DNA of 64,000 bases from Thermodesulfobacteriota bacterium (GCA_965198945.1 CBDAQI010000005.1:1-64000); one strand, 5' to 3'; positions 10,061 to 55,876 are shown, counted from the stretch's first letter. The notes: generated by a model from the sequence alone, not told the origin. Program-made: numbers and translations.

Positions 10061-11254
10061 ATGAAAAGGAAACCCGCCGCACTGAAAAAACCCCTGTCAA
10101 TCTACGTCCACTTTCCCTACTGTGATTTCAAATGCCCTTTTTGCAACCTGAACGCATGGGAGCAAAAGGGATTTGATGAAAAAACATATATTGAGTCGTT
10201 GCGGAGGGAGTATGAAAACACCGTCGCCGGAATGCCCGGATTGATGTCAGATTATGTGATTGACACCGTTTTTATGGGAGGAGGAACGCCTTCTCTTTTC
10301 ACTGTACAGTCCGTGGAAAAAACGCTTGAGTTTCTGTCGGACAAATGCGCAATTTCAGAACACGCCGAAATATCCATTGAAACTCATCCCTTATCGTCCG
10401 AGACCAACAGGCTAAAAGGATACCGGGAGGCCGGTGTCAACCGTGTAAGCATAGGCGTTCAGTCTTTTTCTTCGGAAAAATTGAAAAGCCTCGGAAGAAG
10501 ATACGAGGCGGAGAGCTGCTTTGAGGCGGTGGAAAATGCCAAAGAATCGGGAGTCGGAAATATAAGCCTGGACATAATAGCCGGGGCTCCGGGAGAAACT
10601 CCCGGAACTTTTGGAGAAGACATTCAAAGAGCCGCAGACACCGGGGTAACCCATTTGTCCGTTTACAATCTTGAAGTTGAAAAAGGAACCCGTTTTTATG
10701 CGCTTGCAAAAAGAGGCGAGCTGCCGCTCCCTTCAACGGAACAGTCCACACAGATGATTGAGAGGGCCGTGAGAGAAATGGAAGCGCGCGGAATGGAAAG
10801 GTATGAAATCTCAAGTTTCGCGGAGCCGGGAGGCCGGTGCAGACACAACATAAACTATTGGCGTTCGGGAGACTACATCGGTCTCGGCGCGGGCGCCCAC
10901 TCACATCTGACCACCGAAGACGCGCCTTTCGGCCTGAGGTGGGCGAACCCCCGGAGTCCCGGAATTTATATGGGAAAAGCCGGGCGCGGAATTGTATCCA
11001 AAAGGAAAAAAAATGATGCGGAAACGGGTTTTACAGACTGTTTGATGATGGGGCTGCGCCTTGCCGAGGGCATTGACATGCGGCTTGCCGAGAAAAAATT
11101 CAGCGTCTCGGTGGACAAAAACACTATTGAAAAACTTGAAAACGGCGGTTTTTTAAGCGTCTCAAACGGAACCGTTAAAATGACGGCAAAAGGATTTCTT
11201 GTTGCAAACTCCATATTTGTGGAAATTACGGGCAAAGTGAAAATTGTTTCATAG
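10061..11254 (+). CDS. hemW: Radical SAM heme chaperone HemW (HemN-like)
   Basis: YVHFPYCDFKCPFC, GGGTPS, RVSIGVQSF, YEISSF...HNINYW, YIGLGAGAH. Confidence 0.88.
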   Translation: MKRKPAALKKPLSIYVHFPYCDFKCPFCNLNAWEQKGFDEKTYIESLRREYENTVAGMPGLMSDYVIDTVFMGGGTPSLFTVQSVEKTLEFLSDKCAISEHAEISIETHPLSSETNRLKGYREAGVNRVSIGVQSFSSEKLKSLGRRYEAESCFEAVENAKESGVGNISLDIIAGAPGETPGTFGEDIQRAADTGVTHLSVYNLEVEKGTRFYALAKRGELPLPSTEQSTQMIERAVREMEARGMERYEISSFAEPGGRCRHNINYWRSGDYIGLGAGAHSHLTTEDAPFGLRWANPRSPGIYMGKAGRGIVSKRKKNDAETGFTDCLMMGLRLAEGIDMRLAEKKFSVSVDKNTIEKLENGGFLSVSNGTVKMTAKGFLVANSIFVEITGKVKIVS

Positions 11255-11391
11255 GGTAATCTGACAAATATTCCAGCCTCCGGAAGAGCAAAAATGGCAA
11301 AAATCATCACCGTAAAAGCACAGAAAAACTCGGAGACTCATCAATAAAAAGCAGATACGGAGGCAAAGAAATTTTTAAAGCAGTTGGCAAC
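11160..11391 (+). repeat. Left copy of the hemW-3'/eno-5' junction duplication, containing a deleted eno pseudo-fragment (11294-11391)
   Basis: The ATG at 11294 reads MAKIITVKAQ (eno: [10 protein letters not shown]). 11329-11391 reads LGDSSIKSRYGGKEIFKAVGN versus eno 13840-13902 [21 protein letters not shown], 48/63 nt identical by hand count. Confidence 0.85.
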
Positions 11392-11563
11392 GGGACGCTC
11401 CGCCATCCGAAACTTCACCGCCTTAGCACCAATGCCGCAACCACAAGAAAAGATGCCTTCATTCTCTGGAATGACTGCTGATAAGGTGACCGCGTGAGAT
11501 AGTCTGAAATATTTTTGTGCGGCCACGGTTGAAAAAATAACCTGACAATGACTTCATAGGTTA

Positions 11564-12793
11564 TCACGCCAAATCCCCATAAAGTGGGACCGTCGGCGCA
11601 TGCGCATCAATCATTCTGGTAATATTTGCTGCTAATGGAAGGTTGTTTTTTTCCATCTCCCATACCTCCCGGAAACGCCGCACGGTTTCTGTTGCGGTGT
11701 CTATGACGAGTTTTTCCGGGAGAAGCGCTTTAGCGGCGAGATGGCGCAACTCGTCAGCACTGAACTGAGCCATTTTTCCGGTACGCGAATAGTTAAGCGC
11801 GGCCGTATTCTCGCCCTTGACATAAGAGATTGTGGAGACGAGATCGTAGACCGGTGAGAGAGCCGCCGTGCGTTTGTCGGGATAGATCAGCGACCAGTTT
11901 TTGAGGTGCATATCGCCATTGCCTATCAGGGCGCAAAAGACAAGTCTGCGAATATATTCGGCTGTGCTGGCATCGCCGGTTTCGGCGCCAATAACGCGGC
12001 CGATATTGGCGTAGCTCGCACGCTTATATTTGTTGTCTGGGAAGACGCCAAATACCTGCGCAAAATCCTCGGCGTGGACAGCTCCTTCCGCCGTGCGGTC
12101 AAAGCGGCTGACGGCGAGGGCCTGTCCCTCAAGTTCGCCAATGCCTTCCGGCATGCCGGCGATGGCATCAATGTCTATAAGTTTGATACCGGGCGCATCC
12201 ATGCCTATCAGCTTTGCGAGTGTCATCATTGAGAATTCATTCTCGGGCACACCCGAAAATTGTTGAGAGGGCAGCTTAATTATCCACGAGCCACCGACCC
12301 CTTCCGCCGGAATGGTGAGACCACCGCGTCTGTTACGGTTCTCTATCGCCGAGAATTTGAGCTGAACACCGGCAAGTGAGAAGCGGTATGCATTGGTCCG
12401 GACACTGTCCGGGGAAACTTCCGGCACGCCCGGAGGCATGGCTTCGCCTTCAATCGGGTGGATAGACACAGCACCGGGCAGATCCTGACCCAGCATCCAA
12501 AGCAGGAAGAACTCGCGTTGCGGGTTGACCCCGGCGCGGTCTGCCAGATAGAGGCGCAAGCGCCCTTCAGGCAGCAGGTTCGAAAAAAAGGGCGGCACCA
12601 CGCGCCGTGTGGGCTGGGAATTGGTGATCAGTCCGCCGAGACTGTCCTTGTAGGAGAGACTTAAAGTTGGGCGTGCGGTGTCGTTCACATACTGCTCGTT
12701 GAAAGCAAAAATAGTTAGATCTCCCTGCATACGGGTCAGGGTGGCGATCGAATGTCCGTGCAACTGAACATCAAGTACCGACACTTCAGGCAT
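11564..12793 (-). CDS. hipA: HipA-family toxin kinase
   Basis: PPFFSNLLPEG, SLAGVQLK, WIIKLP, RFDR, HAEDFAQ, GNGDMHLKNWS, LSPVYD. The ATG at 12793 overlaps the antitoxin stop. Confidence 0.93.
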   Translation of the reverse strand: MPEVSVLDVQLHGHSIATLTRMQGDLTIFAFNEQYVNDTARPTLSLSYKDSLGGLITNSQPTRRVVPPFFSNLLPEGRLRLYLADRAGVNPQREFFLLWMLGQDLPGAVSIHPIEGEAMPPGVPEVSPDSVRTNAYRFSLAGVQLKFSAIENRNRRGGLTIPAEGVGGSWIIKLPSQQFSGVPENEFSMMTLAKLIGMDAPGIKLIDIDAIAGMPEGIGELEGQALAVSRFDRTAEGAVHAEDFAQVFGVFPDNKYKRASYANIGRVIGAETGDASTAEYIRRLVFCALIGNGDMHLKNWSLIYPDKRTAALSPVYDLVSTISYVKGENTAALNYSRTGKMAQFSADELRHLAAKALLPEKLVIDTATETVRRFREVWEMEKNNLPLAANITRMIDAHAPTVPLYGDLA

Positions 12794-13379
12794 CGCCGCC
12801 CTCGTCATCCAACATGTAAGCGGGCCTGGAGTCGTCGGTAGAATCTCCATGCGCAGTTGAATTCAGGAGACTCTGCAGACTGTGCGCAATGTCACGGAAA
12901 ATGGGGACAGCCTGCGGCCTGCCCCGGTGGCACTCAAGCCGGGCGACCACCTTGCGCACCAGCCGCATTTGTTGATCGCTTAACTTCATACGGCGCAGGA
13001 AGGATAGAGACTCCTCAATGTGATCAAGCTCTGCGGAGCTTCCATAAAGCTGCTTCATCTTTTTGATCAGGCGTTCGGCACGTGCAAAACGCCTGCTACT
13101 GGACCGGTCGGCACGGATGCGCACCGCAGGCGTAGCTTGAGCCTTCACGAGGCCCAGCACAGCGGGCACAAGTTTCTTCGGCACAAGTATGAGCTCAAGG
13201 TCAAGAGCACGCGCCATGTCAATAAAGCTCGACAGGCCAGGCTCTATTTTGCCGCCCTCAATCTGCGAAATATGGCTCTGGGTCAGGCCGGCTCTATCAC
13301 TCAGTGCCCTCTGGCTGGTGCCAGATGCTTCACGCACCTCGCGAGCCTGTGTGATGAGATTCTCACTTTTATAATTCAT
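12786..13379 (-). CDS. HipB-like XRE antitoxin with a long C-terminal extension
   Basis: REASGTSQRALSDRAGLTQSHISQIEGGKIEP HTH; lies directly upstream of hipA and overlaps it. Confidence 0.85.
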   Translation of the reverse strand: MNYKSENLITQAREVREASGTSQRALSDRAGLTQSHISQIEGGKIEPGLSSFIDMARALDLELILVPKKLVPAVLGLVKAQATPAVRIRADRSSSRRFARAERLIKKMKQLYGSSAELDHIEESLSFLRRMKLSDQQMRLVRKVVARLECHRGRPQAVPIFRDIAHSLQSLLNSTAHGDSTDDSRPAYMLDDEGGDA

Positions 13380-13383
13380 GATG

Positions 13384-13424
13384 TATTATTCTATATCAAT
13401 TTAAGCAAATGATATAGAATAATA
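13384..13424. promoter_or_regulatory. Perfect 15-bp inverted repeat, probable hipBA operator
   Basis: tattattctatatca-N11-tgatatagaataata, 4 nt upstream of the antitoxin ATG. Confidence 0.75.
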
Positions 13425-13559
13425 TATACATTATCACGGATTAAGAATCATATAGATACAAAATAATAATCAAAACTACTTTAGGATACAGAATTATGAA
13501 TCACTACTCTGAACTTTTCGTTTTAGTCGTGACACGACAGGGAAGTTACAAATCACTTT

Positions 13560-13902
13560 CTGAAAGGAGCGGTGAAAATTATCCGAAGAGGTCTTTTTAT
13601 TGCCAAACTCTATAATCGTGAAAATTACAGAGGGGGCGAAAACCGTTTCATGATATAATCCAGAAAATCTTTTATGATCCGGAGACAAAATGGCAAAAGT
13701 TAAAACAGTAAAGGCGCGAGAAATTATTGACTCACGGGGAAATCCCACCGTTGAAGTTGATATTTTGTGCGAAGACGGCTCATTCGGAAGAGGGGCCGTG
13801 CCTTCCGGCGCATCAACGGGAAAATTTGAAGCGCGTGAACTCAGAGATTCATCAAGAAAAAAGAGATACGGAGGCAGGGGTGTTCTCAAAGCGGTTGGAA
13901 AT
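13560..13902 (+). repeat. Right copy of the hemW-3'/eno-5' junction duplication (degenerate hemW end, functional eno start)
   Basis: ttgccaaactctataatcgtgaaaattacag...gtttcatga resembles hemW ttgcaaactccatatttgtggaaattacgg...gtttcatag. ccggagacaaaatggcaaaa resembles ccggaagagcaaaaatggcaaaa. Confidence 0.8.
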
Positions 13903-15003
13903 GTCAACCGGATACTCAAAAGAGCCGTATCCGGAATTGACGCGCGCGACCAGCGGGAGATTGACCGGAAACTTATTGAAAAAGATTCAACAAAAGCAAA
14001 ATCACGGCTCGGAGCAAATGCGATTCTGGGCGTTTCGCTTGCGGCTTCACGGGCCGCGGCCGAATCACAGAAAGTACCTTTTTATCTGCATCTGTCCCGG
14101 CTGAACGGGAAAATACGCCCCGCTCTTCCGGTTCCTTTTATGAACATAATCAACGGCGGCGCTCACGCGGACAACAATCTGGATTTTCAGGAATTCATGC
14201 TTGTGCCGCACGGATTCAAAAGCTTCTCCGAGTCTCTGCGCGCGGGAGTTGAAATTTTTCAGAGTCTCAAATCTCTTCTGAAATCAAAGGGGCTTGCCAC
14301 ATCAGTCGGAGATGAAGGGGGTTTCGCCCCGGACTTGCGCTCAAATGAAAGCGCAATGGAATTCATAGTCTTGGCGGCGGAAAAAGCCATTTATAAAACG
14401 GGCGGGCAAGTGTCAGTGGCGATGGATGCGGCGGCAAGCGAATTATTCTCGGACGGTAAATACCGCATCGGAGGCAAAAAAATTTCGTCCGGGGCGCTCA
14501 TAAAAATGTATGAAAAATGGACGAAAAACTGGCCGCTTGTTTCAATTGAAGACCCTCTGGACGAAAACGACTGGGATGGGTGGAGTGAGCTTATGGACCG
14601 CATAGGACACTCCGTTCAGATTGTGGGGGACGACCTGTTTGTTACAAACAGACTGAGGCTTGAAAAGGGAATCAAACTCGGAGCGGCAAATTCAATACTC
14701 ATCAAAGTAAACCAGATAGGGACCCTTTCGGAAACCTTTGATGCAATGGAGTGCGCACGGCGCGCGGGTTATTCGTGCATGGTGTCTCACCGTTCGGGTG
14801 AAACCGAAGATCCGGCCATCGCAGACATAGCTGTGGCAACCGCATGCGGACAGATAAAAACGGGCGCACCGTGCAGAGGCGAAAGAACCGCAAAATACAA
14901 CCGCCTGCTGAGAATTGAAGAGGAGCTGGGCAAAAAAGCGGTGTTTGCGGGAAAGGTAATTCTGGATAAAATTCAAGTTGGACAAAGGGGTTCTGAAATC
15001 TGA
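13690..15003 (+). CDS. eno: Enolase
   Basis: [45 protein letters not shown]. Confidence 0.98.
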
Positions 15004-22701: not shown

Positions 22702-23090
22702 AACAGATAGTTGTGGTAACCGGCAACAGAATAGGAGCGATAGCGGACATAAGCCGCATTCTGTCTGAAAAAGGCATTAACATTGAGCGGCTTGACACAA
22801 GCGGGTCAAAATCGCACGGAGCAGTGATTTTGAAAACCGACAATTACGACAAAGCGCTCAAAGCGTTGAACGATTCGGGTTTGAAAGCCGTGTCGGAAGA
22901 CGCCCTGGTTTTGAGACTGGAGAACAAGCCCGGTTCGCTCGCAAAAATTTCGGGAAAACTCAAAGACGCCGGAATTAATATCCGCAGTATGCACATCATC
23001 CAAAAGGGAGAGGAGCACTCGCTTGTGGCAATAGCCACGGAAGAAAACAACCGTGTGCGCGGGCTGTTGGAAGATGTGTTGATTGGATAA
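22698..23090 (+). CDS. Tandem ACT-domain protein
   Basis: NRIGAIADISRILSEKGINI and ENKPGSLAKISGKLKDAGINI; ATGA overlap with the decarboxylase. Confidence 0.85.
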   Translation: MKQIVVVTGNRIGAIADISRILSEKGINIERLDTSGSKSHGAVILKTDNYDKALKALNDSGLKAVSEDALVLRLENKPGSLAKISGKLKDAGINIRSMHIIQKGEEHSLVAIATEENNRVRGLLEDVLIG

Positions 23091-23189
23091 AGGTGAAGGA
23101 GAATTATATTTCTAACTTGACAAAATCCGGTGAAAAAACAGATTGCAAGAAAATGAAAGAAACGAATAGAAGCATGAAACAAAAGAACA

Positions 23190-29437: not shown

Positions 29438-30052
29438 ATGGAAAAACTTGAAACGCTGCTTGACCGCGAGATTGACCTGTTTTTGTCCGAGGCGCGAGAG
29501 CTTACTGAAGTAAAAGCGCTTGTTTCGGGAAATTTGAGTAAATCTCAGTATAAGAAACTGCTGAGACTTTTCTGTTTTGTAGAGCAGATCAGCCACAGGG
29601 CGGTCAACACTGCGGCAATTTACGCGGGTGAAACCGGAGATGCCTACCTTGCGGGGCGGCTGGGCTCCTGCGCGGCGGGAGAGCTTGGACATGCGGAGTT
29701 GGCGCTTGAGGATTTGAGAGACCTCGGTGAAAAAAACGCAAAAATTCCGAAGGCGGAGAAGTGGGAAAGTGAACTGCTGAAAAAAGCGCGTGAGTTTCCG
29801 CCCGCGATTATAGGGCATTCATATCTGTTTGAAGGCGCGAGCGGGATTTTATTTCAGGATGCGGTTGTTCCGGAGAAAATGCCTGAGCGGTTTGTCGTTG
29901 TTCACGCAAAGGAAGACCCGGCGCACGCGCGGGCTATTAAGCGCACAATCAGGATTATGGAGAAGGAATTGAACGAAAAACAGTCTGAAGAGATTGTAAA
30001 ATTTGCCCGGAAAAGCGGGGAAAGGTTGATGAAAGTGTTTGAAGAAATGTGA
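29438..30052 (+). CDS. Haem-oxygenase-like (PqqC/CADD-fold) putative di-iron enzyme
   Basis: All-helical 204 aa with GELGHAELALEDL, YLFE and HAKEDPAH ligand-like motifs; GGAGG RBS. Confidence 0.65.
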   Translation: MEKLETLLDREIDLFLSEARELTEVKALVSGNLSKSQYKKLLRLFCFVEQISHRAVNTAAIYAGETGDAYLAGRLGSCAAGELGHAELALEDLRDLGEKNAKIPKAEKWESELLKKAREFPPAIIGHSYLFEGASGILFQDAVVPEKMPERFVVVHAKEDPAHARAIKRTIRIMEKELNEKQSEEIVKFARKSGERLMKVFEEM

Positions 30053-30156
30053 GAGATTCTACTATCTGAAACTTCAAATTTTTTTAAACGATTTTACAAT
30101 CTTCATTACATTTTTCTACATTTGCTCCCGATTCGTCCTGTTATTGCAGAGTTTTC

Positions 30157-30226
30157 CGTCATTGCCGCGAAAGCTTGTCCTCATGAAAGCATGTCCCCGT
30201 GAAAACGGGGACGGGCGTGAATCCGG
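30157..30226. repeat. Nested CGTC-type REP-like palindromes
   Basis: cgtcattgccgcgaaagc-ttgtcctcatgaaagc-atgtccccgtgaaaacggggac-gggcgtgaatccgg; the inner perfect hairpin gtccccgt-gaaa-acggggac is at 30193-30212. Confidence 0.65.
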
Positions 30227-30380
30227 ATAAACACCCATTTTTCACTCTTCAACTGCTTTTCCAATTCGCTTTACCTTTATTTCCGACTGTCAAGTTTATT
30301 CCTTTTCTCGTCTTGAATCCGTGTATAATTGCAATTGTAGACTGCAAAGGTCAAGTTCAATTAATTTATGGAGGATTAAA

Positions 30381-30749: not shown

Positions 30750-30788
30750 TCAAACAAGATATCCAAGCCGGTCCGAAAAATGAACAAG

Positions 30789-30896
30789 ATTGTGTTTCAA
30801 GACGCAGTTTTTCGGAACTATGGAAAAGAAAAAACCGGAGAAATTGTTAAATTCTTCCGCAAAATCTTGGAAAAATGAATGAAAGTGTTTGTGGAA
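30789..30896 (+). repeat. Second, internally deleted copy of the 3' part of the HO-like gene
   Basis: IVFQDAVF matches ILFQDAVV (29846). EKTGEIVKFFRKILEK*MKVFVE matches KQSEEIVKFARKSGERLMKVFEE. Confidence 0.8.
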
Positions 30897-30901
30897 CCGG
30901 T

Positions 30902-30931: not shown

Positions 30932-30932
30932 A

Positions 30933-35132: not shown

Positions 35133-36148
35133 TATGGAAGTTTGTTACTAAATAACGGCATTTGGCTTTCTGATTTATTGCCGTTCTTGCCGTTGCCATT
35201 CAGTTGCTCATTGAGCGTATTCCGCTCCCAGAAAACACCGTTGCAGTAACCTTGTATCGTTTTGTCTGACTCCGCCATTTCAAGGCGTTTCTCAGCAAGG
35301 CAGCAGTAAAGTTCATCTATCTCTACTCCCACATAGTTTCTTCCCAGTTTCTTTGCCACAACCGATGTGGTGCCGGAACCGAGAAAAGGGTCAAAAACGA
35401 CATCTCCGTGCTTTGAACTTGCAAGAAGGATTTTCGCAACGAGTTTTTCAGGTTTTTGTGTCAGGTGGTCGGTATTTTCTGGCATAGACCAAAATGGAAC
35501 AGTAATGTCGGTCCAAATGTTTGAGGGATATGTCAGGCGGTATCTGCCGTTTCCTTCTTCATTCCAGTCTTTCGCTTTGCCGGAACCATCACGATATGGA
35601 GCGATGACCTTTCTTTTTACTTTTACGGCATTAACATCAAAGTGATAATCTTTTGACATTGTGCAAAACCAAATATCCTCGGAGCTGTTTTTCCAATTCG
35701 TTTTTGCTCCCCGTCCTTTTTCCCGTTCAAAGGTTATGCGATTTTGAATCTCAAAATATTTTCCGGCAACATTGAAAATCGCGCCCGATGACCTCCAGTC
35801 TCCGCAAATATAGATTGATGAGGTTGATTTCAAAAGGCGAACCATTCTGCCGACCCATGAGTCAAGCCATTTCTCATATTTTTCCGACTCCATTTCTTTG
35901 AAAGTTGTGAGATTGAATGTTTTGTTTAGATTGTAAGGAGGGTCTACAAAAACGACATCAATAAAACTATCGGGCAGATGATCCAGCACTTCAAAAATGT
36001 CTTGGTTTATTGTTTTGTTCAAAACATCATCAACAGAGACCGAACCGCCAATTTGAACAAAACGCTTTTTATATCTAATTCGCTCTCTGTCATCCAAAGT
36101 AATAGTGCGATTGCGTGGAGCACGCTGTTTTACTAAGTTTGAAACCAT
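35132..36148 (-). CDS. DNA methyltransferase, N4/N6, beta class
   Basis: DPPY precedes VFDPFLGSGTT; H.TQKPEKL. Confidence 0.92.
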   Translation of the reverse strand: MVSNLVKQRAPRNRTITLDDRERIRYKKRFVQIGGSVSVDDVLNKTINQDIFEVLDHLPDSFIDVVFVDPPYNLNKTFNLTTFKEMESEKYEKWLDSWVGRMVRLLKSTSSIYICGDWRSSGAIFNVAGKYFEIQNRITFEREKGRGAKTNWKNSSEDIWFCTMSKDYHFDVNAVKVKRKVIAPYRDGSGKAKDWNEEGNGRYRLTYPSNIWTDITVPFWSMPENTDHLTQKPEKLVAKILLASSKHGDVVFDPFLGSGTTSVVAKKLGRNYVGVEIDELYCCLAEKRLEMAESDKTIQGYCNGVFWERNTLNEQLNGNGKNGNKSESQMPLFSNKLP

Positions 36149-42654: not shown

Positions 42655-43392
42655 ATGCCGTCAAACCGGAAAAAACCTCTCTATAAAAGAATTCTTCTGA
42701 AAATCGGCGGTGAAGCCCTTCAGGGCAAATGCGAATCCGGCATAGACACTGAGACTTTGGACAAAGTTTCGGCCGAACTTAAAGAGCTGACCTCGCTCGG
42801 AATTGAAATCGCTCTTGTAATAGGCGGCGGCAATTTCTTCAGAGGCAGTTCCGACAGTGCGCGTGGTATGGACCGTTCCACCGCGGACTATATGGGAATG
42901 CTCTCAACGGTTATAAACGCGATAGCGCTTCAGGACTCTCTTGAAAAACAGGGAGTTGACACAAGGGTGCAGAGCGGCCTTGAAATAAAGCAGGTTGCCG
43001 AACCTTTCATCAAACGCCGGGCTCTGCGGCATATTGAAAAAGGCAGAGTTGTGATTTTCGGGGCGGGCACGGGCAATCCGTTCTTCACAACGGACACCGC
43101 TGCGAGCTTGCGGGCTCTTCAAATAGGCGCGGACGTTGTGCTCAAAGGGACTAAGGTTGACGGCATATATGACAAAGACCCGAAAAAACACAAAGATGCA
43201 AAGATGTTCAGCGAGCTTTGCTATATGGATGTTATCCAGAAAGAGCTTGATGTGATGGACACGACCGCAATTTCCCTGTGCATGCAGAGCGGTATTCCGA
43301 TAGTGGTTTTTAATTTGTTCAAACCGGGAAATATAAATAAGGTTATAAGCGGTGAAAAAATAGGAACAAAAGTTTGGAACGGCCCAAAATGA
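42655..43392 (+). CDS. pyrH: UMP kinase
   Basis: [35 protein letters not shown]. Confidence 0.97.
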
Positions 43393-43955
43393 GCGAAACT
43401 TCGGCGGACATAAAAAAACAGACTTCGGACAGGATGAGCAAAACTCTCTCGGCTCTTGAGTCCGAATTGTCAAAACTGCGGACGGGCAAGGCCTCAACCG
43501 GTCTGGTTGAAGGGCTTGAGGTTGATTACCACGGCGCAAAGATGCCTTTTAATCAAATTGCTTCAATCAACGCTCCCGACCCGCAAACGATTCTAATTCA
43601 GCCATGGGACGAAACGGTGATAGGTGAAATAGAAAAAGCAGTGAATCAGTCAGACCTCGGACTCACTCCGGTGAGAGACGGCAAAACGGTCCGGCTTTCC
43701 ATTCCGCCTTTGAGCGGAGAGAGAAGAAAAGAGCTTATAAAAGTCGCCGCCAGAATGGCGGAAGACCACCGTGTTTCAATAAGGCAGACACGAAAAGACT
43801 TGAACACAAAAATAAAAGCCATGGAAAAAGCGGGCGAGTTATCCGAAGACGAAAGCAAAAAAACGCTCAGCGACATTCAGAAATCCACCGATGAGTTTAT
43901 CACCCGTATAAACTCAATTCTTCAAAAGAAAGAAAAAGACATTATGGAAGTTTAG
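43389..43955 (+). CDS. frr: Ribosome recycling factor
   Basis: [31 protein letters not shown]. Confidence 0.96.
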
Positions 43956-44018
43956 GGGGCGGTCTCCATACACTTCCTCTTTCCACCTAAAGCATAGCAT
44001 ACGAAAACTTGGCCGACA

Positions 44019-44067
44019 AAACATCCTTGAAAATCTACTATCAAATGGTAGATTTTCAAGGATGTTT
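44019..44067. promoter_or_regulatory. Perfect 20-bp inverted repeat covering the promoter and start codon of the AAA ATPase gene
   Basis: aaacatccttgaaaatctac-N9-gtagattttcaaggATGttt; contains TTGAAA and TGnTAGATT. Confidence 0.8.
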
Positions 44068-45240
44068 GACAGATATTTACAAAATATCATTTTGGAATTG
44101 CTGACCACAAATCCGGCTGTAGTGCTGACGGGGCCGCGGCAGATTGGAAAGACAACTTTTGCAAAAGAGTTTTCCAAAAGTTTCAAAGCAGTCTACCGGG
44201 ACTTGGAAAATTCCCGGGACCTTAAGCAGGTAAAGGACATTCAATTTTTTACAGAGCAATATGCGGAGAATCTGATTATTCTGGATGAGGTTCAGAGGTT
44301 GCCGGAAATTTTCCCTGAAATCAGAGGTATCATAGACCGTAACAGGCGTGCTGGACGGGAAAACTGTCAATTTCTTTTTCTCGGTTCCGCTTCGCCGGAC
44401 CTGCTGAGACAGACGAGCGAGAGTCTTGCGGGAAGAATTTCTCATGTTGAGCTTGCTTCTCTCAATTTGCTGGAACTGGACGAAAAATTTCACGACTTGC
44501 TCTGGCTGAAAGGGGGATTCCCGGAAAGTCTTAAACGTAATGAGCAAGACAGTTTTAACTGGCGTTCCAGTATGGTCACAACTTACCTTGAAAGAGACAT
44601 TCCGCAGTTCGGCTTTCGTATTCCGGCTGAAACAATGAGGCGTTTGTGGATGATGCTCTGCCACTATCCGGGCGGCATTTTGAATTCCGCCATGTTGTCC
44701 GGCAGTCTGGGAATCAGTGATAAAACCGTCATACGCTACCTTGATATTCTCGTGGATCTACTGCTTGTGAGAAGATTGCAGCCGTGGCACACAAACACAA
44801 AAAAGCGTCTTGTGAAGTCTCCGAAAATTTACATACGAGACTCCGGGTTGTTGCATATGCTTTTGAATATAAAGACAAAAGACGATTTGCTCAATAATCC
44901 CATCTGCGGACAAAGCTGGGAGGGGTTTGTAATTGAGAATCTGATAAACAGTTCAAGGGAAAGCCATTATCCGTATTTCTACAGAACCCAGGCCGGAGCT
45001 GAGATAGACTTGCTTCTTTGCAGAGGCATTACTCCTGAAATTGCCATTGATATAAAACTGTCTTCAAACCCGAAAACGCGAAAGGGATTTGACATAGCCT
45101 GTGATGATTTGAATGTCCGGCACCGTTTTGTGGTTTATCCCGGAGAGGAAACATATTTATTAAAACCAAAAACTTACGCGGTTCCGCCCGCGGAATTATG
45201 CGGGTGGCTCTGGAACAGAGCAAAAGGGGAAATTCATTGA
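44062..45240 (+). CDS. AAA_14 ATPase with winged HTH and DUF4143 domain
   Basis: GPRQIGKTT, ILDEVQ, LGSAS, ESLAGR, GGFP, YLERDI, KSPKIYIRDSGL, YRTQAGAEIDL. Confidence 0.9.
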   Translation: MFDRYLQNIILELLTTNPAVVLTGPRQIGKTTFAKEFSKSFKAVYRDLENSRDLKQVKDIQFFTEQYAENLIILDEVQRLPEIFPEIRGIIDRNRRAGRENCQFLFLGSASPDLLRQTSESLAGRISHVELASLNLLELDEKFHDLLWLKGGFPESLKRNEQDSFNWRSSMVTTYLERDIPQFGFRIPAETMRRLWMMLCHYPGGILNSAMLSGSLGISDKTVIRYLDILVDLLLVRRLQPWHTNTKKRLVKSPKIYIRDSGLLHMLLNIKTKDDLLNNPICGQSWEGFVIENLINSSRESHYPYFYRTQAGAEIDLLLCRGITPEIAIDIKLSSNPKTRKGFDIACDDLNVRHRFVVYPGEETYLLKPKTYAVPPAELCGWLWNRAKGEIH

Positions 45241-45258: not shown

Positions 45259-45363
45259 GACGGGAAAATAAAAAATGCTCGCTGACATTCAGAAATCCAC
45301 ATATAAGTTTATTTCACGCATAAACTCGCTTCTTGAGGAGAAAGAAAAATATATTAGTTAGGG
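45259..45363 (+). repeat. Degenerate duplicate of the frr 3' end
   Basis: gctcgctgacattcagaaatccacatataagtttatttcacgcataaactcgcttcttgaggagaaagaaaaatatatta versus 43865-43944 gctcagcgacattcagaaatccaccgatgagtttatcacccgtataaactcaattcttcaaaagaaagaaaaagacatta. Confidence 0.9.
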
Positions 45364-45373
45364 TTAGGTGTAT

Positions 45374-47728
45374 TTATATTTTGAAATGACTGACATATGG
45401 CTCATATTCTAATTCCTCTTTTTCTTCTCTTTCAACTTTGCTTTGCAAAATCTCTTTCACAAATACCGACATTCCACTCAAAAGAGTTCTTTTTGGAGAA
45501 AACCGATCCTCTGAAAGGGCAAGCAGAAAAACTCCTTTCCGTGCGCGGGTAATTGCCACATAAAACAATCGTCTTTCTTCCGCATTAGGAAACATTACAT
45601 CTTCTTCAAGAACCATATTTAGAACAGGGTCATTCTGTATTCCGGAAGGAAAACCATAACCATTAACGTCAAATTCATTGCCAAGAATAATAACCCAATC
45701 CTTCTCAATGCCCTTGGACTGATGGATAGTGCTGAATTCTATGGAAAGACCTTTTAATTCAGCCTCCTTCTTTAATTCGTTCCAGTCAGCGGGCTTTGAA
45801 TGTTTGTAGCGCCCCAAAACAAGGCATTCTTTACTGGCCTGACTCTGAAGAGAAATTCTATCAATTGCATATTGCAAAGCTTTCTTGCGTTGTATTGCTG
45901 ACCGGCCATGTTGAATAACTCTTATTGGTTTTGCTTTTTTATTGAAGTCTATTCTGGAAGAGACTTCTTTTTTTAACTGCATTGGATTTTTTGTAATAAA
46001 AATTCTACTAAAATCAGCAATTTGCTGAGAAAAGCGAAAAGTCTCGTTCAAATCAGTACGGCACATTGCGCCGACATACTCATCAAAATGCGTAATTAAA
46101 TTTACGTTAGCCCCCTGAAATGAGTAAATTGACTGCCAATCATCACCAACACAAAACAGCCTTGCATCTCTAACCTGCTCCCGCAGCTCCAAAAGCATTT
46201 TTAGCCTTGCAAGTGTTATATCCTGATACTCGTCCACCAAAATATATTTAAATTGGGACCGCCACTCACCCCGTTTCAAACATTGGGTTCCGCCAACAAT
46301 CATATCCGTGTAATCAATTTCACCATTTTTGCCGAGTTCTCGCTCATAATTGTCTCTGAAAAATTCAAACAATTCCAAAAACACAATATCTCTATTAGAA
46401 TTTGCCCGAGACTTAAGATAGTCTCCGGAAATTGAATTCTCTCTGCACAAAGAAAGAAACTGGTCTATCAATTTGATAAAATTTGGAATAGGAGTGGAAC
46501 CCTGCTTGATAAATTTCTCAATGTCTTGTCCTGAAACAGGTTTTTTTTCAACTCCATATTGAAAAAGTTTTGTTTCAAGGGCATTCACCAGTCCGTCTTG
46601 CCGTCTTGCCTCATAACTATAAGTCTCTACAAGTTTGGTATTGTTTTCGCGATGAGTTTTTCTTTTCCAGTCAATACCTGCACTGTATTTTTCTTTACTG
46701 ACTCCGGGAGCGGTATTGCCATCCTCATCTATACCAAAATGTTCAATCCATAAATCGTAGTCCGGCAGGTAAAAGTCCGGACGATAATTCCCTGGACATG
46801 GGTATTTTTTTTCATATTCCCATTTCACCCCGCTGAGAATCAGCCAGTTTGCTATTTGGACTTCTTCATAGCTCTTAAGTTCTTTGCCATCAAGGCTTTT
46901 CAGCCCTGCAACATATTGATTCTTTTCCAAATACTCAATTTTCTCTTCCACATTTTCTTCTGGATCTCCCTCAAATAGATAAGTGGAAAAGTATTGAGAA
47001 AACAAATCCCTTTGGTGGTGATTTTCAAACATATTTTTTAACGTTTTTTCAAAAAAAGGCTTGGCATCATTAGCAAGACCGCTTACTTTCGGAGACCTGC
47101 CCTGAACTTTTTCTACAATTTTGCGCCCAAGGGCATGAAGCGTATAAACAGGGATACTGAAATTTATTTCTTTTTTTAATCTTTTCTCAATCTCTCTTTG
47201 CGCATCTACGTTGTATACGACAATAAGAATCTCTTGCGGCTCTGCAATTTTTTGGTTCAGAAGATAAGAAACCTTGCCAAGAATTGTTCGAGTTTTTCCC
47301 GAACCCGCGCCAGCATTAACTAAATTAGCATCTTCGTCTCTGACAACTGCAAGCCGCTGAGATTCTGTCAAACCCAGACCATCAAAAAAATTTTTTGACT
47401 GCACAAGTCTTTTTTCAACAAATCTTTCGTTGATTTCATCTATAAAGGCTCTGCTTTCCAGCAAACGCTTTGCTTTCCCGAATTTGGCTCGCAAATTTGC
47501 TTTCAGAAAAATAAAATCAAAAAATGAATTACGAAAACAACTGAATTCTGCCTCAGCAAGTTGTCTCTCAGCTTTTTTCCTGTTTAGATATTCGCCACTA
47601 GCCTCTCTTTTAAGTTTTTGCTCAATATCCTCAAATTTAGCAATAAAGCACTCTGCCTCCCGGCATCTGCTCTTTCTTTTATAGTAGTAAAAAACCGCTA
47701 TTGGAACAATGGCAAAGATAATTTCCAT
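45374..47728 (-). CDS. UvrD/helicase IV-like SF1 helicase with an N-terminal TM anchor and an inserted nuclease-like domain
   Basis: AGAGSGKT, LVDEYQD, VGDDWQSIY, STIHQSKG.E, EERRLFYVAITRA; insert KSYEE..IANWL...YRPDFYL...IEHFG. Confidence 0.88.
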   Translation of the reverse strand: MEIIFAIVPIAVFYYYKRKSRCREAECFIAKFEDIEQKLKREASGEYLNRKKAERQLAEAEFSCFRNSFFDFIFLKANLRAKFGKAKRLLESRAFIDEINERFVEKRLVQSKNFFDGLGLTESQRLAVVRDEDANLVNAGAGSGKTRTILGKVSYLLNQKIAEPQEILIVVYNVDAQREIEKRLKKEINFSIPVYTLHALGRKIVEKVQGRSPKVSGLANDAKPFFEKTLKNMFENHHQRDLFSQYFSTYLFEGDPEENVEEKIEYLEKNQYVAGLKSLDGKELKSYEEVQIANWLILSGVKWEYEKKYPCPGNYRPDFYLPDYDLWIEHFGIDEDGNTAPGVSKEKYSAGIDWKRKTHRENNTKLVETYSYEARRQDGLVNALETKLFQYGVEKKPVSGQDIEKFIKQGSTPIPNFIKLIDQFLSLCRENSISGDYLKSRANSNRDIVFLELFEFFRDNYERELGKNGEIDYTDMIVGGTQCLKRGEWRSQFKYILVDEYQDITLARLKMLLELREQVRDARLFCVGDDWQSIYSFQGANVNLITHFDEYVGAMCRTDLNETFRFSQQIADFSRIFITKNPMQLKKEVSSRIDFNKKAKPIRVIQHGRSAIQRKKALQYAIDRISLQSQASKECLVLGRYKHSKPADWNELKKEAELKGLSIEFSTIHQSKGIEKDWVIILGNEFDVNGYGFPSGIQNDPVLNMVLEEDVMFPNAEERRLFYVAITRARKGVFLLALSEDRFSPKRTLLSGMSVFVKEILQSKVEREEKEELEYEPYVSHFKI

Positions 47729-53332: not shown

Positions 53333-53360
53333 CCGCCGTTTCAGAGGTGTTATAACTATT
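53333..53360 (+). repeat. 28-bp direct repeat, left copy (dksA promoter region)
   Basis: ccgccgtttcagaggtgttataactatt; right copy at 55849-55876 with 1 mismatch. Confidence 0.88.
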
Positions 53361-53637
53361 TGAATAAACAGAGATTGTCAAGATGAAAAGAGTTAACATA
53401 ATAAAAGTTTTTTGACGAGTGGGGGAGACAGGGTAACCGGTCGTCAAATCAATGGACTGGATTAGGCTCTGTAATGTTTCCGCCGCCAAGAAAAGGTGTT
53501 TACTTCCGCACACGGGAAGAGAAGTGCGGGAATGACAAAGAAAATATGGAAATAGATGGAAGACATAGCTCCTCCCTTTGAAATCATTCTGTGTCTGACA
53601 CACAATCCGAGGGTTTATGGCAGGACTTGTCGGAATA

Positions 53638-53730
53638 CTGGATTCCCGTTTCCACGGGAATGACTGGGAAAAAAATGGGAATTACGGGGAAAGAAATGGA
53701 AATGACAGAAAAGAATGCGGTAATGACTGA
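53638..53730. repeat. dRS3/CGTC-like REP followed by degenerate ~21-nt GGGAATGAC tandem units
   Basis: ctggattcccgtttccacgggaatgac, then gggaattac, ggaaatgac and ggtaatgac at ~21-nt spacing. Confidence 0.75.
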
Positions 53731-53757
53731 TGTAACGTATATGAAATCGTTTGAATA

Positions 53758-53838: not shown

Positions 53839-55500
53839 TTAGAATTTCTCCAGCTCTACAAAGGAACTCATCCTCCAGTTGGTAAAAGCTCCGTTCTCCA
53901 TCCTCCACATCAGATAATAAATATCCGAGCTATTGAATTCCAGTATCGGAGTTTCAAGTTTGAGGTGCGGAACATTAAAGCCCCCGCTGAAGCCTGCCGC
54001 TTCGGTTCTGTAAATAACCACATCGTCTGCACCTGCTGTTACTTTCACCAAGAACTGTAGATATCTCTCACCTCCAATTCTTACACTCCCTGAAGGAAAA
54101 CCAACACTGGGAGACACCAGCCATTTTATGCGGAAATCCCCGTCCAGAGAGAAGAAAGTCCTGTTTGGAGTTATGGGATAACTCGTGTTGGTATCAGTGT
54201 TGGCCGGCCTGGTCGCCTGAAAACTGGGGGTAATTGTCTGACCGAAATTTTTCAGCCTATTCCCCCAGTTGAAGGAACGCGATGTTCCCAAGCTTAAGGG
54301 CCTTGTCCCCGCTGTAAATTCACTCTCCGGATACATCTCCACATCTTGCATATATCCCGTCACTTCGGTCTGATGCTGATGAGGAAATGTCGCAACTCCT
54401 TTTAGAACACCAGGGGCGGCGGTATTTGAACCTGAAGATACAGGCGCTTCCTTTTCCACCGGAATGCCGTTTTCATCAAAACCCAGAAACTTGTTCGCCA
54501 TGCCGTGCGCAAGCTGCGCAAGACCAACGGAGTCATCAGTTATCTTGGATTGAGTAACGGCACCGTCAGCAAGTTTCGGAGTGGTAACGGCACCATCTGC
54601 GATTTTAGATGTCGTAACAGCTCCATCGGCAATGTTGGTCTCTATAATCCCAGATTCCGGTATTTTCCCCGTCACAATCGCTCCGGGGGCTATGTGTATA
54701 CTTCCCACAGCATTAGGGGCTATCGTTCCGGGCGTAACAGCTCCGGGGTTTATGTTAACGGACTCCACAGCGTTGGGAGCTATCTTCCCCGTAGTAATAG
54801 CTCCGGGGGCTAAGTGTATGGAACTTATAGCCCCGTCCGCTATGTTGCCGGACTCCACAGCGTTAAGAACCACTTTGCCAACCCCAACGGCTCCGGGCGA
54901 AAGCTGCAATTCGCCCACAGCTCCCGGCTCTATGTTTGTGAAAGTTACCGCATTGGCTCCTATCTTCCCGGAAGTAACCGCTCCATCGGCAAGTTTGATT
55001 GAAGTTACAGAAACGTCTGCCACTTCCGCCTGAGCAGTTACACCAACCTCAAAAACCTGCACCGTCATGCTGTTGTTCAGACGATACAAGGCGAGATTCC
55101 CTTTTTCAAAACTTCCTCCGGTGAAGTTGGAAGGAGAAGATGACTCACTCCTTAACAGAACCTTCAACTGATGGTTGCCGCCTTCCGCTTTCACCATCAG
55201 CTTGATATTGAAATCGCGCCGCTCAACATTTGCTGAAGTAAGTTCTCCATCTTCCAGATCAAAGTATCTGACACCCCCGTTTCTCAGGAAGTTGGATGAA
55301 ACCATACTCGCAAAACTCTGCGTCTCAACAGCTGAAGAGCTTGGCGGAGCAAATTCCTGGCGCGTGTAGTTCAGCCGCGCCGTAATAAGCAGCATCTTGT
55401 TCTCAGGAACAGTGTAGCTGCCAACATTTTGGTAAGAACCTTCGGTGGACAAATCCACTTGCCCGGTGTTTACACTTCTTAAATTCCAATTTATATTCAT
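53839..55500 (-). CDS. Hypothetical fibre-like protein with 17 decapeptide repeats
   Basis: AAGGAGGT RBS 10 nt before the ATG at 55500 (553 aa); repeats of the type DGAVTTSKIA encoded at 54508-55017. Confidence 0.8.
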   Translation of the reverse strand: MNINWNLRSVNTGQVDLSTEGSYQNVGSYTVPENKMLLITARLNYTRQEFAPPSSSAVETQSFASMVSSNFLRNGGVRYFDLEDGELTSANVERRDFNIKLMVKAEGGNHQLKVLLRSESSSPSNFTGGSFEKGNLALYRLNNSMTVQVFEVGVTAQAEVADVSVTSIKLADGAVTSGKIGANAVTFTNIEPGAVGELQLSPGAVGVGKVVLNAVESGNIADGAISSIHLAPGAITTGKIAPNAVESVNINPGAVTPGTIAPNAVGSIHIAPGAIVTGKIPESGIIETNIADGAVTTSKIADGAVTTPKLADGAVTQSKITDDSVGLAQLAHGMANKFLGFDENGIPVEKEAPVSSGSNTAAPGVLKGVATFPHQHQTEVTGYMQDVEMYPESEFTAGTRPLSLGTSRSFNWGNRLKNFGQTITPSFQATRPANTDTNTSYPITPNRTFFSLDGDFRIKWLVSPSVGFPSGSVRIGGERYLQFLVKVTAGADDVVIYRTEAAGFSGGFNVPHLKLETPILEFNSSDIYYLMWRMENGAFTNWRMSSFVELEKF

Positions 55501-55770
55501 AAGGTTTGATACCTCCTTATTGTAGATTTGGACGGCCCGTTTGCCGGGCAATCCATAATTGGGATTTACTTGCATTATAGGAAAAATTATTTCCTCTGAC
55601 CAAAAAATATGAAAAAAGATAAAGACCAATGTTTACGGGGGTGAAGTGATGAAAGGGATGAGGGGTTTTCTGCAAAAGCTGAACCGTTTCTTGCAAAAAA
55701 CGGCCGTTTTTACCTGCTTGTGACTTCCGTGCCTGACAAGAAATCAGAGATTTTTACAGATGTCCTAATA

Positions 55771-55832
55771 CTGGATTCCCGCTTTCGCGGGAATGACGGA
55801 GAAGCGGTAATGACAAGGAAATGCGGTAACTA
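55771..55832. repeat. Second dRS3/CGTC-like REP with trailing degenerate units
   Basis: ctggattcccgctttcgcgggaatgac, then ggtaatgac and ggtaactac; same orientation as the 53638 copy. Confidence 0.78.
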
Positions 55833-55848
55833 CGAAACTCTCATTGCC

Positions 55849-55876
55849 CCGCCGTTTTAGAGGTGTTATAACTATT
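55849..55876 (+). repeat. 28-bp direct repeat, right copy
   Basis: ccgccgttttagaggtgttataactatt. Confidence 0.88.

Follow-up and report, generated by a model that had tools for sequence, protein, structure and literature searches.

The window analysed here, a 64,000-nt stretch of a Thermodesulfobacteriota bacterium (GCA_965198945.1 CBDAQI010000005.1:1-64000), belongs to a small marine bacterial genome (G000) that is available as a draft assembly of 14 contigs and is 95% complete. It was compared with genomes of the same genus (among them G001, G002, G003 and G005), which are other species (~75% identity) rather than strains. The genomes are small with tiny spacers, and 791 adjacent orthologue pairs are kept in order between G000 and G003. 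Repeats were detected by self-BLASTN of the window (word size 7) and a repeat search, with multiple alignment for hemW/eno, and each bracket was tested by local alignment against 200 dinucleotide shuffles per pair. The first-pass annotation had described accessory blocks lying between direct-repeat copies of the adjacent host sequence at six places. The brackets are largely real, and that reading is partly supported. Direct host copies around cargo were recovered by self-BLASTN, and five of the six named brackets stood, none of the 200 shuffles reaching the score of the frr pair, of the HO-like spare copies 3 and 2, or of the HTH gene 3' end, eno 5' end, hemW 3' end and dksA upstream pairs. 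The identities counted by hand earlier, 71% and 76%, agree with our values of 70-74% for HO-like copy 2 and 76.5-79% for frr. The sixth bracket, the ACT gene 3' end (22950..23100, + strand) around DUF262-HNH, fell away, as no second copy was found and its score of 19 was equalled by 57/300 and 156/200 shuffles. An RNA gene scan of the window found only two RNA genes, tRNA-Arg (29271-29344) and tRNA-Ser (37540-37623), neither of which adjoins any bracket.

The leftmost bracket lies between a hemW-like radical SAM gene (10061..11254, + strand; Pfam Radical_SAM and HemN_C) and eno (13690..15003, + strand; Pfam Enolase_N/C), the orthologues of which are adjacent in G001, G002, G003 and G005. The hipBA cargo between them (11396..13544, - strand; hipA 11564-12850, hipB 12786-13379; Pfam HipA_C, Couple_hipA and HTH_3), which includes a palindromic operator at 13381-13427 seen by self-BLASTN, is missing from all four of these relatives. 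To its left, the junction copy (11255..11395, + strand; 0/200 shuffles) comprises the spacer and a dead eno 5' fragment (11294-11395) that has lost 115 nt internally. The corresponding direct pairs are 11327-11390/13838-13901 (78%) and 11286-11319/13682-13715. To its right, the junction copy (13545..13689, + strand; multiple alignment, 0/200 shuffles) comprises a dead hemW 3' remnant of ~100 nt (13545-13646), in which one extra base shifts the frame, and the spacer with the eno promoter. Given this hemW remnant, the hipBA bracket is a ~360-bp duplication of the hemW 3' end, the spacer and the eno 5' end.

A serial array follows the HO-like (Haem_oxygenas_2-like) core gene (29438..30058, + strand), whose functional 3' end (29976-30058) is one of three copies. 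Cassette A (30059..30825, + strand), missing from the relatives, carries an ORF with a Pfam ABM domain (30321-30749) and is followed by spare copy 2 (30826..30902, + strand; 0/200 shuffles). Cassette B (30903..31999, + strand) contains an ORF (30933-31202) and a double-HTH antitoxin-like gene (31199-31999; two Pfam HTH_3 domains) that is internally duplicated (31217-31554/31622-31980). Then come a HEPN-MNT pair (32013..32718, + strand), which is 75% identical over 729 nt to a G001 pair located directly 3' of the HO-like gene, a spare copy of the antitoxin gene 3' end (32760..32814, + strand; 0/200 shuffles; direct pair 31954-31992/32776-32814, 82%) and HO-like spare copy 3 (32826..32885, + strand). 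Older cargo lies behind copy 3 (32884..36148, - strand), consisting of a DUF6119/TIGR04141 gene, a weak HincII-like ORF and an N6/N4 methyltransferase, and the far side of this hot spot is bounded by the tRNA-Ser gene. The HO-like 3' pairs are 29998-30058/32826-32885 (80%) and 29976-30046/30826-30896 (70%), and the spare copies of ~77 and 61 nt differ in length at one target. The homology of copy 2 with the arrangement of HO-like end and downstream sequence in G003/G005 extends beyond the stop codon, and a remnant of cassette B in G005 keeps only its two ends. The locus appears to be an allele mosaic: in the tree, copy 3 grouped with G002/G003 (88% support) and the functional copy with G001/G005 (83%), while the last ~90 nt of the gene are nearest to G001 (88%) and most windows elsewhere in it are nearer to G002/G003/G005, at the resolution of 60-nt windows only. 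The order of similarity to the functional end (80% for copy 3, 70-74% for copy 2) breaks a simple clock in which the newest copy lies next to the gene, which counts against the explanation that we favour below.

Downstream of frr (43374..43956, + strand; functional 3' end copy 43858-43956) are a hairpin (44025..44061, + strand), an AAA_14-DUF4143 cargo gene (44062..45240, + strand), which is the PADLOC candidate PDC-S01, and a dead copy of the frr 3' end that contains in-frame stops (45270..45368, + strand; 0/200 shuffles; direct pair 43858-43944/45270-45356, 79%). The dead copy ends 5 nt short of the stop codon of a UvrD/GajB-like helicase gene (45374..47728, - strand) situated directly downstream of serS. 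The nearest homologues of the AAA_14-DUF4143 protein are at most 59% identical and are spread across many phyla. The hairpin has a single occurrence in each of G000 and G001, 3' of frr in both, and is absent from the other four genomes; the spare copy has no downstream hairpin, and it fits these observations that the frr end, hairpin and cargo may have come as one unit. The frr-serS junction is empty and single-copy in G002, where frr itself abuts a convergent gene as the spare end does in G000. No switch of nearest relative is seen along the frr gene in 60-nt windows.

At the dksA site, a promoter/leader piece beside dksA that is followed by a conserved TTGACA box (53333..53365, + strand) recurs beside an alanine symporter gene (55849..55881, + strand; 28-33 nt, 91-96%). 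The direct pair 53333-53360/55849-55876 is 96% identical, its motif is found only twice in the genome, and the dksA-symporter junction is empty in four relatives. Of the two pairs that had been assigned to this bracket, the promoter piece was retained (0/200 shuffles), whereas 53628-53670/55761-55803 (53628..53670, + strand) was rejected as a copy of adjacent host sequence, as it belongs to a dispersed, dRS3-like hairpin family (ATTCCCG-N6-CGGGAAT) with 25 genome matches against 0 for the reversed control pattern. The 'fibre' gene at this site (53839..55629, - strand) is a member of a multi-copy family, and its module (53722-55804) matches positions 9-2099 of contig C6 with 88% identity over 2126 nt.

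The first-pass statement that no integrase or transposase accompanies the cargo was borne out. No such domain was found in 136 cargo and flanking ORFs, comprising 55 of the window, 39 cargo ORFs from four relatives and 42 ORFs from other bracketed sites of G000. Genome profile searches of G000 detected no resolvase, rve or DDE_Tnp_1, a single Y1_Tnp match lying away from the sites (C11:6921-7151) and two PF00589 tyrosine recombinases, both XerC/D-like. Insertion by an IS or transposon was rejected on the lack of rve/DDE_Tnp_1 and of terminal inverted repeats at the cargo ends as judged by eye. An integron cassette array was also rejected, as the integron integrase models reached 114.6 against a 265-bit cut-off with XerC/D as best matches, and inspection of the boundary sequences by eye showed no shared end motif or attC-like end.

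The spare ends might instead be attL/attR sites of small mobilisable elements served in trans by an integrase from a phage, a plasmid or a portion of the genome that was left unassembled. Insertion at gene 3' ends by elements that bring a replacement end is common, which counts for this possibility, as does the tRNA-Ser gene at the HO-like hot spot; moreover, with 95% completeness in 14 contigs, the assembly could lack an integrase gene. We regard it as very unlikely, given that only XerC/D-like recombinases were found, that at least five unrelated target sequences were used and that a single ~360-bp duplication covers two gene ends at the hipBA site. A fixed att core also fits poorly with repeat lengths and left edges that vary at one target.

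Genome-wide, direct flank copies were found at 9 of 78 G000-specific expansions, compared with 0/78 in the inverted control (top inverted score 27 bits), and at 1 of 21 G003 expansions (inverted, 0/21). The footprint is therefore not the general capture route that had been proposed. About 90% of the expansions have no flank copy, so either a minority of events is marked or scars are quickly lost, and this also weighs against our favoured explanation. The cargo at bracketed sites includes hipBA, HEPN-MNT, RES-Xre and AAA_14-DUF4143 genes as well as surface and metabolic genes. At the same junctions the relatives have different cargo or single-copy empty sites, the latter at hemW-eno, frr-serS (G002) and dksA-symporter, in support of the first-pass reading that the blocks are insertions. 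Two metagenome scans yielded nothing new, with no donor and no true empty-site allele found. Other genes carry the footprint in two further species: in G002 the 3' end of a HAD hydrolase gene is present three times, with spares of 159 and 38 nt (92-95%), and G001 has a second serS 3' end (159 nt, 92%) that directly precedes a UvrD-like gene, as serS does in G000. The HO-like copies of G000 and the HAD copies of G002 are all direct and all stop at the natural stop codon, while their left edges vary.

That the brackets reflect chance similarity, or an assembly artefact of strain mixtures, was already disfavoured and is hardly credible. The 14-contig draft, in which the ComEC, alcohol dehydrogenase and HEPN genes appear split or shortened, lends it some colour, but the shuffles of the seven pairs and the inverted controls (0/78) argue against chance, an assembler can neither collapse nor create copies that are 70-80% identical with indels, and the footprint is also present in the single-contig genomes G001-G003.

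We consider it probable, at about 0.58, that the cassettes were inserted by the general recombination machinery acting on imported DNA of related genomes, with no dedicated integrase. An incoming piece would carry a conserved gene end and the cargo that follows this gene in the donor; its conserved part would pair with the resident gene and anchor the piece, and illegitimate joining would fix the far, non-homologous end within the resident gene end or immediately ahead of it. Integration of a circle by a single crossover is the other possibility. In both cases the incoming copy would restore the gene, and the resident end, together with its followers, would be pushed downstream as a spare copy that, no longer under selection, would decay by substitutions, frameshifts and deletions. 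Repetition at one junction would generate an array of gene, cassette, spare end, cassette and spare end, and one illegitimate joint per event is expected to give a shared right end and a varying start at one target. An older native arrangement continues from each spare end, as seen for HO-like copy 2 with cassette B, for serS of G001 and for frr of G000. The linear displacement form fits best at the frr, HO-like, serS (G001) and HAD (G002) sites, and the circular (Campbell type) form fits best at the hipBA site with its two-sided duplication. The hipBA site nonetheless requires either a circle of unexplained origin or two novel joints, and homologous pairing by RecA across 40-160 nt is inefficient; both count against this explanation. 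The insertions themselves, the duplicated ends, the displaced older units, the varying repeat lengths, the signs of an allele mosaic and the lack of recombinase genes other than XerC/D-like ones are shown by the sequences; the route of DNA uptake, the dependence on RecA and the linear or circular form of each event are what we infer. ComEC and DprA are encoded in G000, which permits DNA uptake without demonstrating it.

The copy histories bear on the earlier suggestion that diverged donor alleles supplied the repeats. This is supported for at least HO-like copy 3, with its G002/G003 allele class, but not for most pairs, for which such an allele is unneeded. The frr and eno spares group with their own functional copies on long branches (76% and 51% support), and the codon positions show no third-position excess in the three youngest pairs (90-94% identity): serS of G001, 5/2/3; HAD of G002, 7/4/5; and C1_58853, 1/3/1. 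Trees and codon positions both fit decay after insertion. At 37 G000-specific states, the spare copies have 14 common, 17 ancestral and 6 other states; in a pseudo-replicated control, a random congener shares 34% of states, compared with 45% for the spare copies.

For the young pairs, duplication of the target in place followed by decay fits equally well. A double-strand break with a stagger of tens to hundreds of bases would be filled in around captured foreign DNA, giving two copies that are native and identical at first, and the spare would then decay; the cutter might be encoded by the cargo, as a nuclease-type defence or toxin-antitoxin gene. No enzyme is known to make staggers of 30-360 nt, which counts against this mechanism. 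The branching of the frr and eno spares speaks for it, as do the absence of third-position bias in young pairs, the bracketing of both AAA_14-DUF4143 genes of G000 and of homologous loci in other phyla (5/67 direct, 1/67 inverted), and the double-strand breakage proposed for restriction-modification (RM) systems in the relevant part of PMC2853133. We find it unlikely overall, however: copy 3 of the HO-like end is of a foreign allele class, the hairpin follows the functional frr and not the spare, and old native neighbours directly adjoin HO-like copy 2 and the serS spare of G001, which simple fill-in predicts for one side only.

It is more doubtful still that the spare ends are all that deletion has left of long redundant segments, foreign or tandemly duplicated, that once held whole core genes. 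The 115-nt deletion in eno and the frameshift in hemW indicate that deletional decay is active, cassette B has been reduced to two ends in G005, and the genomes are small with tiny spacers, all of which would suit trimming. What remains, however, is in every case the end next to the old neighbour and never an internal piece, and even the young copies of 159 nt in G001 and G002, with 90-94% identity, are short.

Under the explanation that we favour, recombination with imported DNA, the footprint is of a known kind, namely insertion by the cell's own recombination, and no new class of mobile element. It differs from published cases in that toxin-antitoxin and defence cargo is arranged in serial arrays. 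Gene-end direct repeats that flank cargo and arrays at a single site are shared with integrase-borne islands at tRNA or gene 3' ends and with integron cassettes; unlike these, the sites here have no integrase, no fixed core, no attC-like end by eye and a repeat length that varies per target. Minimal mobile elements (MMEs) of Neisseria, reportedly introduced by Saunders & Snyder 2002, are said to be defined without flanking duplications. Like MMEs, the cassettes are small alternatives, often RM or defence genes, that occupy the same conserved flanks in different genomes without mobility genes and would be exchanged by host recombination; unlike MMEs, gene ends are duplicated here. Such elements are mentioned in a passage of PMC1797815. 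The topology of the hipBA site, with ~360-bp copies of which one lies on hemW and one on eno, fits Campbell-type (single-crossover, insertion-duplication) integration of circular DNA with a copy of the target. Against this model, neither a circle nor plasmid functions were seen, and the duplication is one-sided at most other sites.

The description of insertion with long target duplication reportedly goes back to Nobusato et al. 2000 (Gene 259:99). Long target duplications around integrase-free RM genes, of unproven mechanism, are described in the sections of Furuta, Abe & Kobayashi 2010 (PMC2853133) on RM indels, as inserts of <20 kb without mobility genes between direct repeats of >30 bp, of which the empty site in a related genome has a single copy; a start or stop codon is often included in the repeat, so that the target gene stays intact, and such insertions account for 9/158 RM indels. 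By comparison with those sections, the inserts here are 0.8-2.5 kb without integrase or transposase domains, single-copy empty sites occur in relatives that are other species, and the repeats measure 39-55 nt (antitoxin), 61-98 nt (HO-like and frr) and ~360 nt (hipBA), with dksA borderline at 28-33 nt. The share of marked events is a similar minority (9/78 expansions). The cargo differs from the R and M genes treated there (PMC2853133), being hipBA, the ABM gene, the HTH pair, HEPN-MNT and AAA_14-DUF4143, with a methyltransferase only in the block behind HO-like copy 3. The repeats here are also old and diverged (70-96%) rather than near-identical as in those sections, form serial or nested arrays and include at least one spare of a foreign allele.

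Arrays of T6SS effector-immunity genes in Vibrio cholerae are attributed to displacement by homology-facilitated illegitimate recombination in Kirchberger et al. 2017 (PMC5361080), which also cites Rhs C-terminal displacement and CDI orphan modules. As in that account, the anchor is upstream, the old 3' end and its partners are displaced downstream, and arrays of orphan ends arise without an integrase. Unlike in V. cholerae as described there (PMC5361080), the anchor is the end of a housekeeping gene (frr, serS, hemW/eno, HAD hydrolase or HO-like) and not a polymorphic toxin, and what has been displaced amounts to non-functional fragments of 28-160 nt. As in those arrays, the orphan ends are direct and stop at the natural stop codon, with three HO-like copies in G000 and three HAD copies in G002.

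The genome under study (1.39 Mb in 14 contigs, the window being positions 1–64,000 of contig C5) was compared with five relatives of the same genus (G001 to G005), which are all other species about 75% identical to it and match its gene order nearly gene for gene, with protein identities of 60–90%. With ORFs from our own simple ORF calling, the accessory blocks of the window were found to be missing from, or replaced in, these relatives. Between hemW and eno lies the hipBA block; blocks of 3.7 and 6.1 kb follow the HAD hydrolase and the haem-oxygenase-like (HO-like) genes, respectively; frr is followed by the AAA_14-DUF4143 gene; and a 2.5-kb block with the 'fibre' gene separates dksA from the alanine symporter gene. 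At the frr site, the UvrD-like gene 3' of AAA_14-DUF4143 also has no counterpart in G002 or G003. Most of the cargo is defence-like according to PADLOC (PDC-S01, a GajB-like helicase, a type II methyltransferase, PDC-S05 and a GmrSD-HNH restriction enzyme), to which hipBA and HEPN-MNT can be added.

Self-BLASTN, a repeat search and alignments confirmed that the ends of adjacent genes are duplicated in direct orientation, as a functional copy attached to the working gene and a diverged, decayed spare copy, around five of the six blocks for which the first-pass annotation had described them, and its observation was largely right. For each of seven query ends, the score was equalled by none of 200 dinucleotide shuffles. 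Local alignment against shuffles revealed no second copy of the ACT 3' end that had been proposed to bracket DUF262-HNH, and none of the HAD 3' end in this genome. Of the two pairs described around the dksA cargo, a pair of 28–33 nt is a true local duplicate with two occurrences in the whole genome, while the other was rejected as a target copy, being a member of a dispersed hairpin family. Multiple alignment showed that the hipBA bracket extends further than first annotated: on the left, the copy consists of the working hemW, the spacer and the initial 211 nt of eno, from which 115 nt are deleted; on the right, some 100 nt of the hemW 3' end, containing one extra base, and the spacer lead directly into the working eno. 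It is very improbable that the brackets are an artefact. The HO-like stretch is present in two sequencing runs. The two tRNA genes of the window were rejected as targets, as they adjoin no bracket and have no second copy by self-BLASTN. Two palindromes were rejected as recombination sites: that at 13381–13427 lies at the start of hipB, and that at 44019–44067 is found solely downstream of frr, in this genome and G001.

How often expansions carry such copies was determined from the whole-genome comparison with G003, in which 841 reciprocal best hits gave 791 adjacent syntenic pairs. Intervals longer by at least 500 bp numbered 78 in the genome under study and 21 in G003, in agreement with their sizes of 1.39 and 1.16 Mb, and the extra DNA of the former consists mostly of short blocks between conserved neighbours. 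In a test covering 250 nt inside each flank and 10 nt beyond, 9 of the 78 expansions had a directly oriented flank copy of at least 38 bits, and none had an inverted one (top inverted score, 27 bits); the nine include two tandem paralogues (contig C1, 184–186 kb) and one marginal case of 23 nt. The corresponding numbers for G003 were 1 and 0 of 21. The dksA piece was missed because it is located outside the flank window, and frr was left out since G003 carries cargo of its own at that site. The bracketed class is thus real and strictly direct, and about one expansion in ten belongs to it rather than every one, so that the "general capture route" first proposed was overstated; as a rough estimate, about 1 insertion in 10 leaves a duplicated-end scar. 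Bracketed sites elsewhere in the genome carry a RES-Xre pair, a second AAA_14-DUF4143 gene, SnoaL/hydrolase genes, a TonB-dependent receptor and an Ig-like surface protein. Among the relatives, G002 has the HAD hydrolase 3' end in three copies (159 and 38 nt, 92–95% identity) and G001 has a second serS 3' end (159 nt, 92%). The genus is a compact natural record, in which displaced gene ends form serial arrays at a number of junctions and the footprint is found in three species. Two broader counts were also made. Genome-wide self-BLAST gave 203 direct and 18 inverted near pairs, which were not used as evidence because repetitive genes and the hairpin family dominate them, and a gene-end test at 40 bits or more, with five repetitive regions dropped, gave 29 outward direct and 10 outward inverted matches. 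The latter include hairpin-family and paralogue matches, and the cleaner synteny-based test was relied on.

Several details point to imported DNA that carried a gene end and cargo together, was anchored by homology and displaced the resident end. Such DNA would bring the gene end and the cargo as one piece; homology would anchor it, and the resident end would then be pushed aside as the spare copy. The second HO-like end (30826–30902) and the start of the cassette directly after it (ORF 30933–31202 and the antitoxin-like gene at 31199–31999) align as a single piece with the HO-like end and downstream sequence of G003 and G005. The spare serS end of G001 directly precedes a UvrD-like gene, as serS itself does in the genome under study, and the spare frr end of the latter abuts a convergent gene, as frr itself does in G002. 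Each of these spare ends thus runs on into an older, native arrangement, as displacement by imported DNA would leave it. A hairpin lies 3' of the functional frr and of frr in G001, and at no other place in the six genomes; it is missing after the spare frr copy. In the third HO-like end (32826–32885), four codons belong to the G002/G003 allele class; the functional end (29976–30058) is of the G001/G005 class. In a small tree the two ends group accordingly (88 and 83%, respectively), and the nearest relative of the HO-like gene becomes G001 in its last ~90 nt. For the hipBA site, which is duplicated on both sides, the simpler explanation is that a circle with the ~360-bp junction integrated by a single crossover. 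The record in this genus supports host recombination, acting on imported DNA, as one real route of cassette entry. Within the antitoxin-like gene, the HTH unit is tandemly duplicated (31217–31554 and 31622–31980, 65% identity over 359 nt, giving two HTH_3 domains). In G005 (locus L037, 5403–7469, minus strand), the seryl-tRNA synthetase core domain, in its C-terminal part, shares a single 688-aa open frame with Schlafen/AlbA_2, HATPase_c_4 and Fic-like C-terminal domains; this may reflect cargo that entered the end of serS with no new end being restored, or a frameshift.

The frr and eno spare copies each cluster with their functional counterpart, on branches longer by a factor of about two to seven. 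Pooled differences at the three codon positions were 75, 71 and 118 of ~480 sites each (low power), and a third-position excess was absent from the three youngest pairs (low power). At 37 states specific to the genome under study, the spare copies shared 14, had the ancestral state at 17 and had another state at 6 (low power); sharing with a random congener was 34% vs. 45% for the spare copies, with a control that is pseudo-replicated. These results fit decay after insertion, and given the frr and eno branching and the youngest pairs, the need for a diverged allele, as first proposed, was overstated. Tree, codon-position and state results fit in-place duplication at a staggered break, followed by decay, as well as a donor of the same species, and cannot separate the two; staggered-break duplication is accordingly kept as a serious rival to imported DNA, although we hold it to be rather improbable. 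That the spare ends are larger duplicated blocks trimmed down is a lesser rival, and more doubtful. No event could be dated or polarised with confidence, because all the relatives are ~75% identical; two metagenome-contig scans yielded no conspecific genome, closer relative or donor, and the one matching locus of the second was probably from G003 itself.

Footprints of this kind have already been described. Furuta, Abe and Kobayashi, in passages of their report, describe "insertion with long target duplication" of restriction-modification (RM) genes without mobility genes, in which the repeats exceed 30 bp, are single-copy at the empty site and often cover start or stop codons; it accounted for 9 of 158 RM indels, the majority of cases were in naturally competent species and double-strand breakage was suggested as the mechanism (PMC2853133). 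On all the structural features in those passages, the present cassettes agree with it. They differ in that their cargo is mostly non-RM, their repeats are diverged and build serial, nested arrays and one copy is of a foreign allele class. The displacement route proposed here is that of Kirchberger et al., who, in the part of their report concerned, proposed homology-facilitated illegitimate recombination for T6SS arrays (PMC5361080). The present cassettes are a clear example of this kind, drawn from several sites and species and with non-RM cargo. They bear on a practical question in the study of defence islands, namely how integrase-free hot spots between core genes acquire small defence and toxin-antitoxin (TA) cassettes, and they supply concrete junctions for testing host recombination on imported DNA. 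A more far-reaching reading, to which we assign a probability of about one in five, is that the cassettes are widespread, unnamed, recombinase-free mobile units that carry their own copy of the landing site and re-insert by host homologous recombination ("homing by homology"), with addictive TA, RM or defence cargo guarding against loss between the repeats; if true, this would account for the arrival of defence genes in integrase-free hot spots.

The earlier reading that no integrase is involved was right: the only tyrosine recombinase matches in the genome are two XerC/D-like ones, no resolvase, rve or DDE_Tnp_1 match was found in it, and no integrase or transposase domain was found in 55 ORFs of the window, 39 cargo ORFs from three hot spots in four relatives or 42 ORFs at the other bracketed sites. 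By eye, the cargo ends of five cassettes had no common terminal motif or inverted repeat. Copies at one target share the natural stop codon as their end and differ in their start points, which argues against a fixed crossover core, and we consider it unlikely, more so than either duplication rival, that an integrase acting in trans placed the cassettes. The cassettes reveal neither a new enzyme nor a new kind of element.

The second AAA_14-DUF4143 gene of the genome (contig C1, 362443–363717) is bracketed by 165-nt direct repeats of 79% identity (362167–362330 and 363832–363995), which duplicate the neighbouring gene's 5' part. Both such genes of this genome are therefore bracketed, and the sole copy in G003 is not. 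Among 67 testable homologous loci from many phyla, bracketing repeats were direct in five (L185, L158, L130, L127 and L124) and inverted in one; in L185, from an Acidobacteriota genome, the repeat is a copy, at 98% identity, of the upstream ORF's final ~45 nt (2690–2734 and 4197–4241). Given that both copies here and 5 of the 67 loci are bracketed, a bolder variant, suggested by these sequence comparisons, is that the AAA_14-DUF4143 protein itself may promote insertion with a long duplication of the target.

A few further features were noticed. Three tandem units of 168–169 nt (1805–2254, 76–93% identical) are located at the 3' end of a 670-aa ORF (1991–4003) and in an overlapping ORF (1723–2037), and G001, G002, G003 and G005 have a two-copy repeat with ~336-nt spacing at the matching place. 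The alcohol dehydrogenase gene (25183–26431) is present as two overlapping ORFs, the HEPN ORF (32013–32438) has 80 aa vs. 138 aa in G001, and ComEC (C1, 162074–162909) is matched in two adjacent frames; frameshifts or assembly indels are possible in these cases.

The dispersed hairpin repeat, ATTCCCG-N6-CGGGAAT, has 25 copies in the genome, vs. none for the reversed control pattern. Two are in the window (53642–53661 and 55775–55794), and the 23 others include C4:35551, C4:37610, C6:2070, C10:39867, C11:24338, C11:29673, C13:237552 and C13:241328. The copies have conserved flanks of ~80 nt and trailing GG(G/T/A)AATGAC units, and they fit the 20-bp consensus, ATTCCC-N8-GGGAAT, of dRS3 in the intergenic mosaic elements of Neisseria, as it is given in the relevant part of PMC1797815. 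They tend to flank genes of the 'fibre' family. The 'fibre' gene, for which no family match was found in Pfam, NCBIfam or PADLOC, forms with its flanks (53722–55804) a module of at least 2.1 kb that has a second copy at C6:9–2099 (88% identity) and weaker paralogues on C11, C4 and C13. The hairpin repeats have a candidate partner in the sole Y1_Tnp (IS200/RAYT-like) match of the genome, at C11:6921–7151 within a 293-aa open frame.
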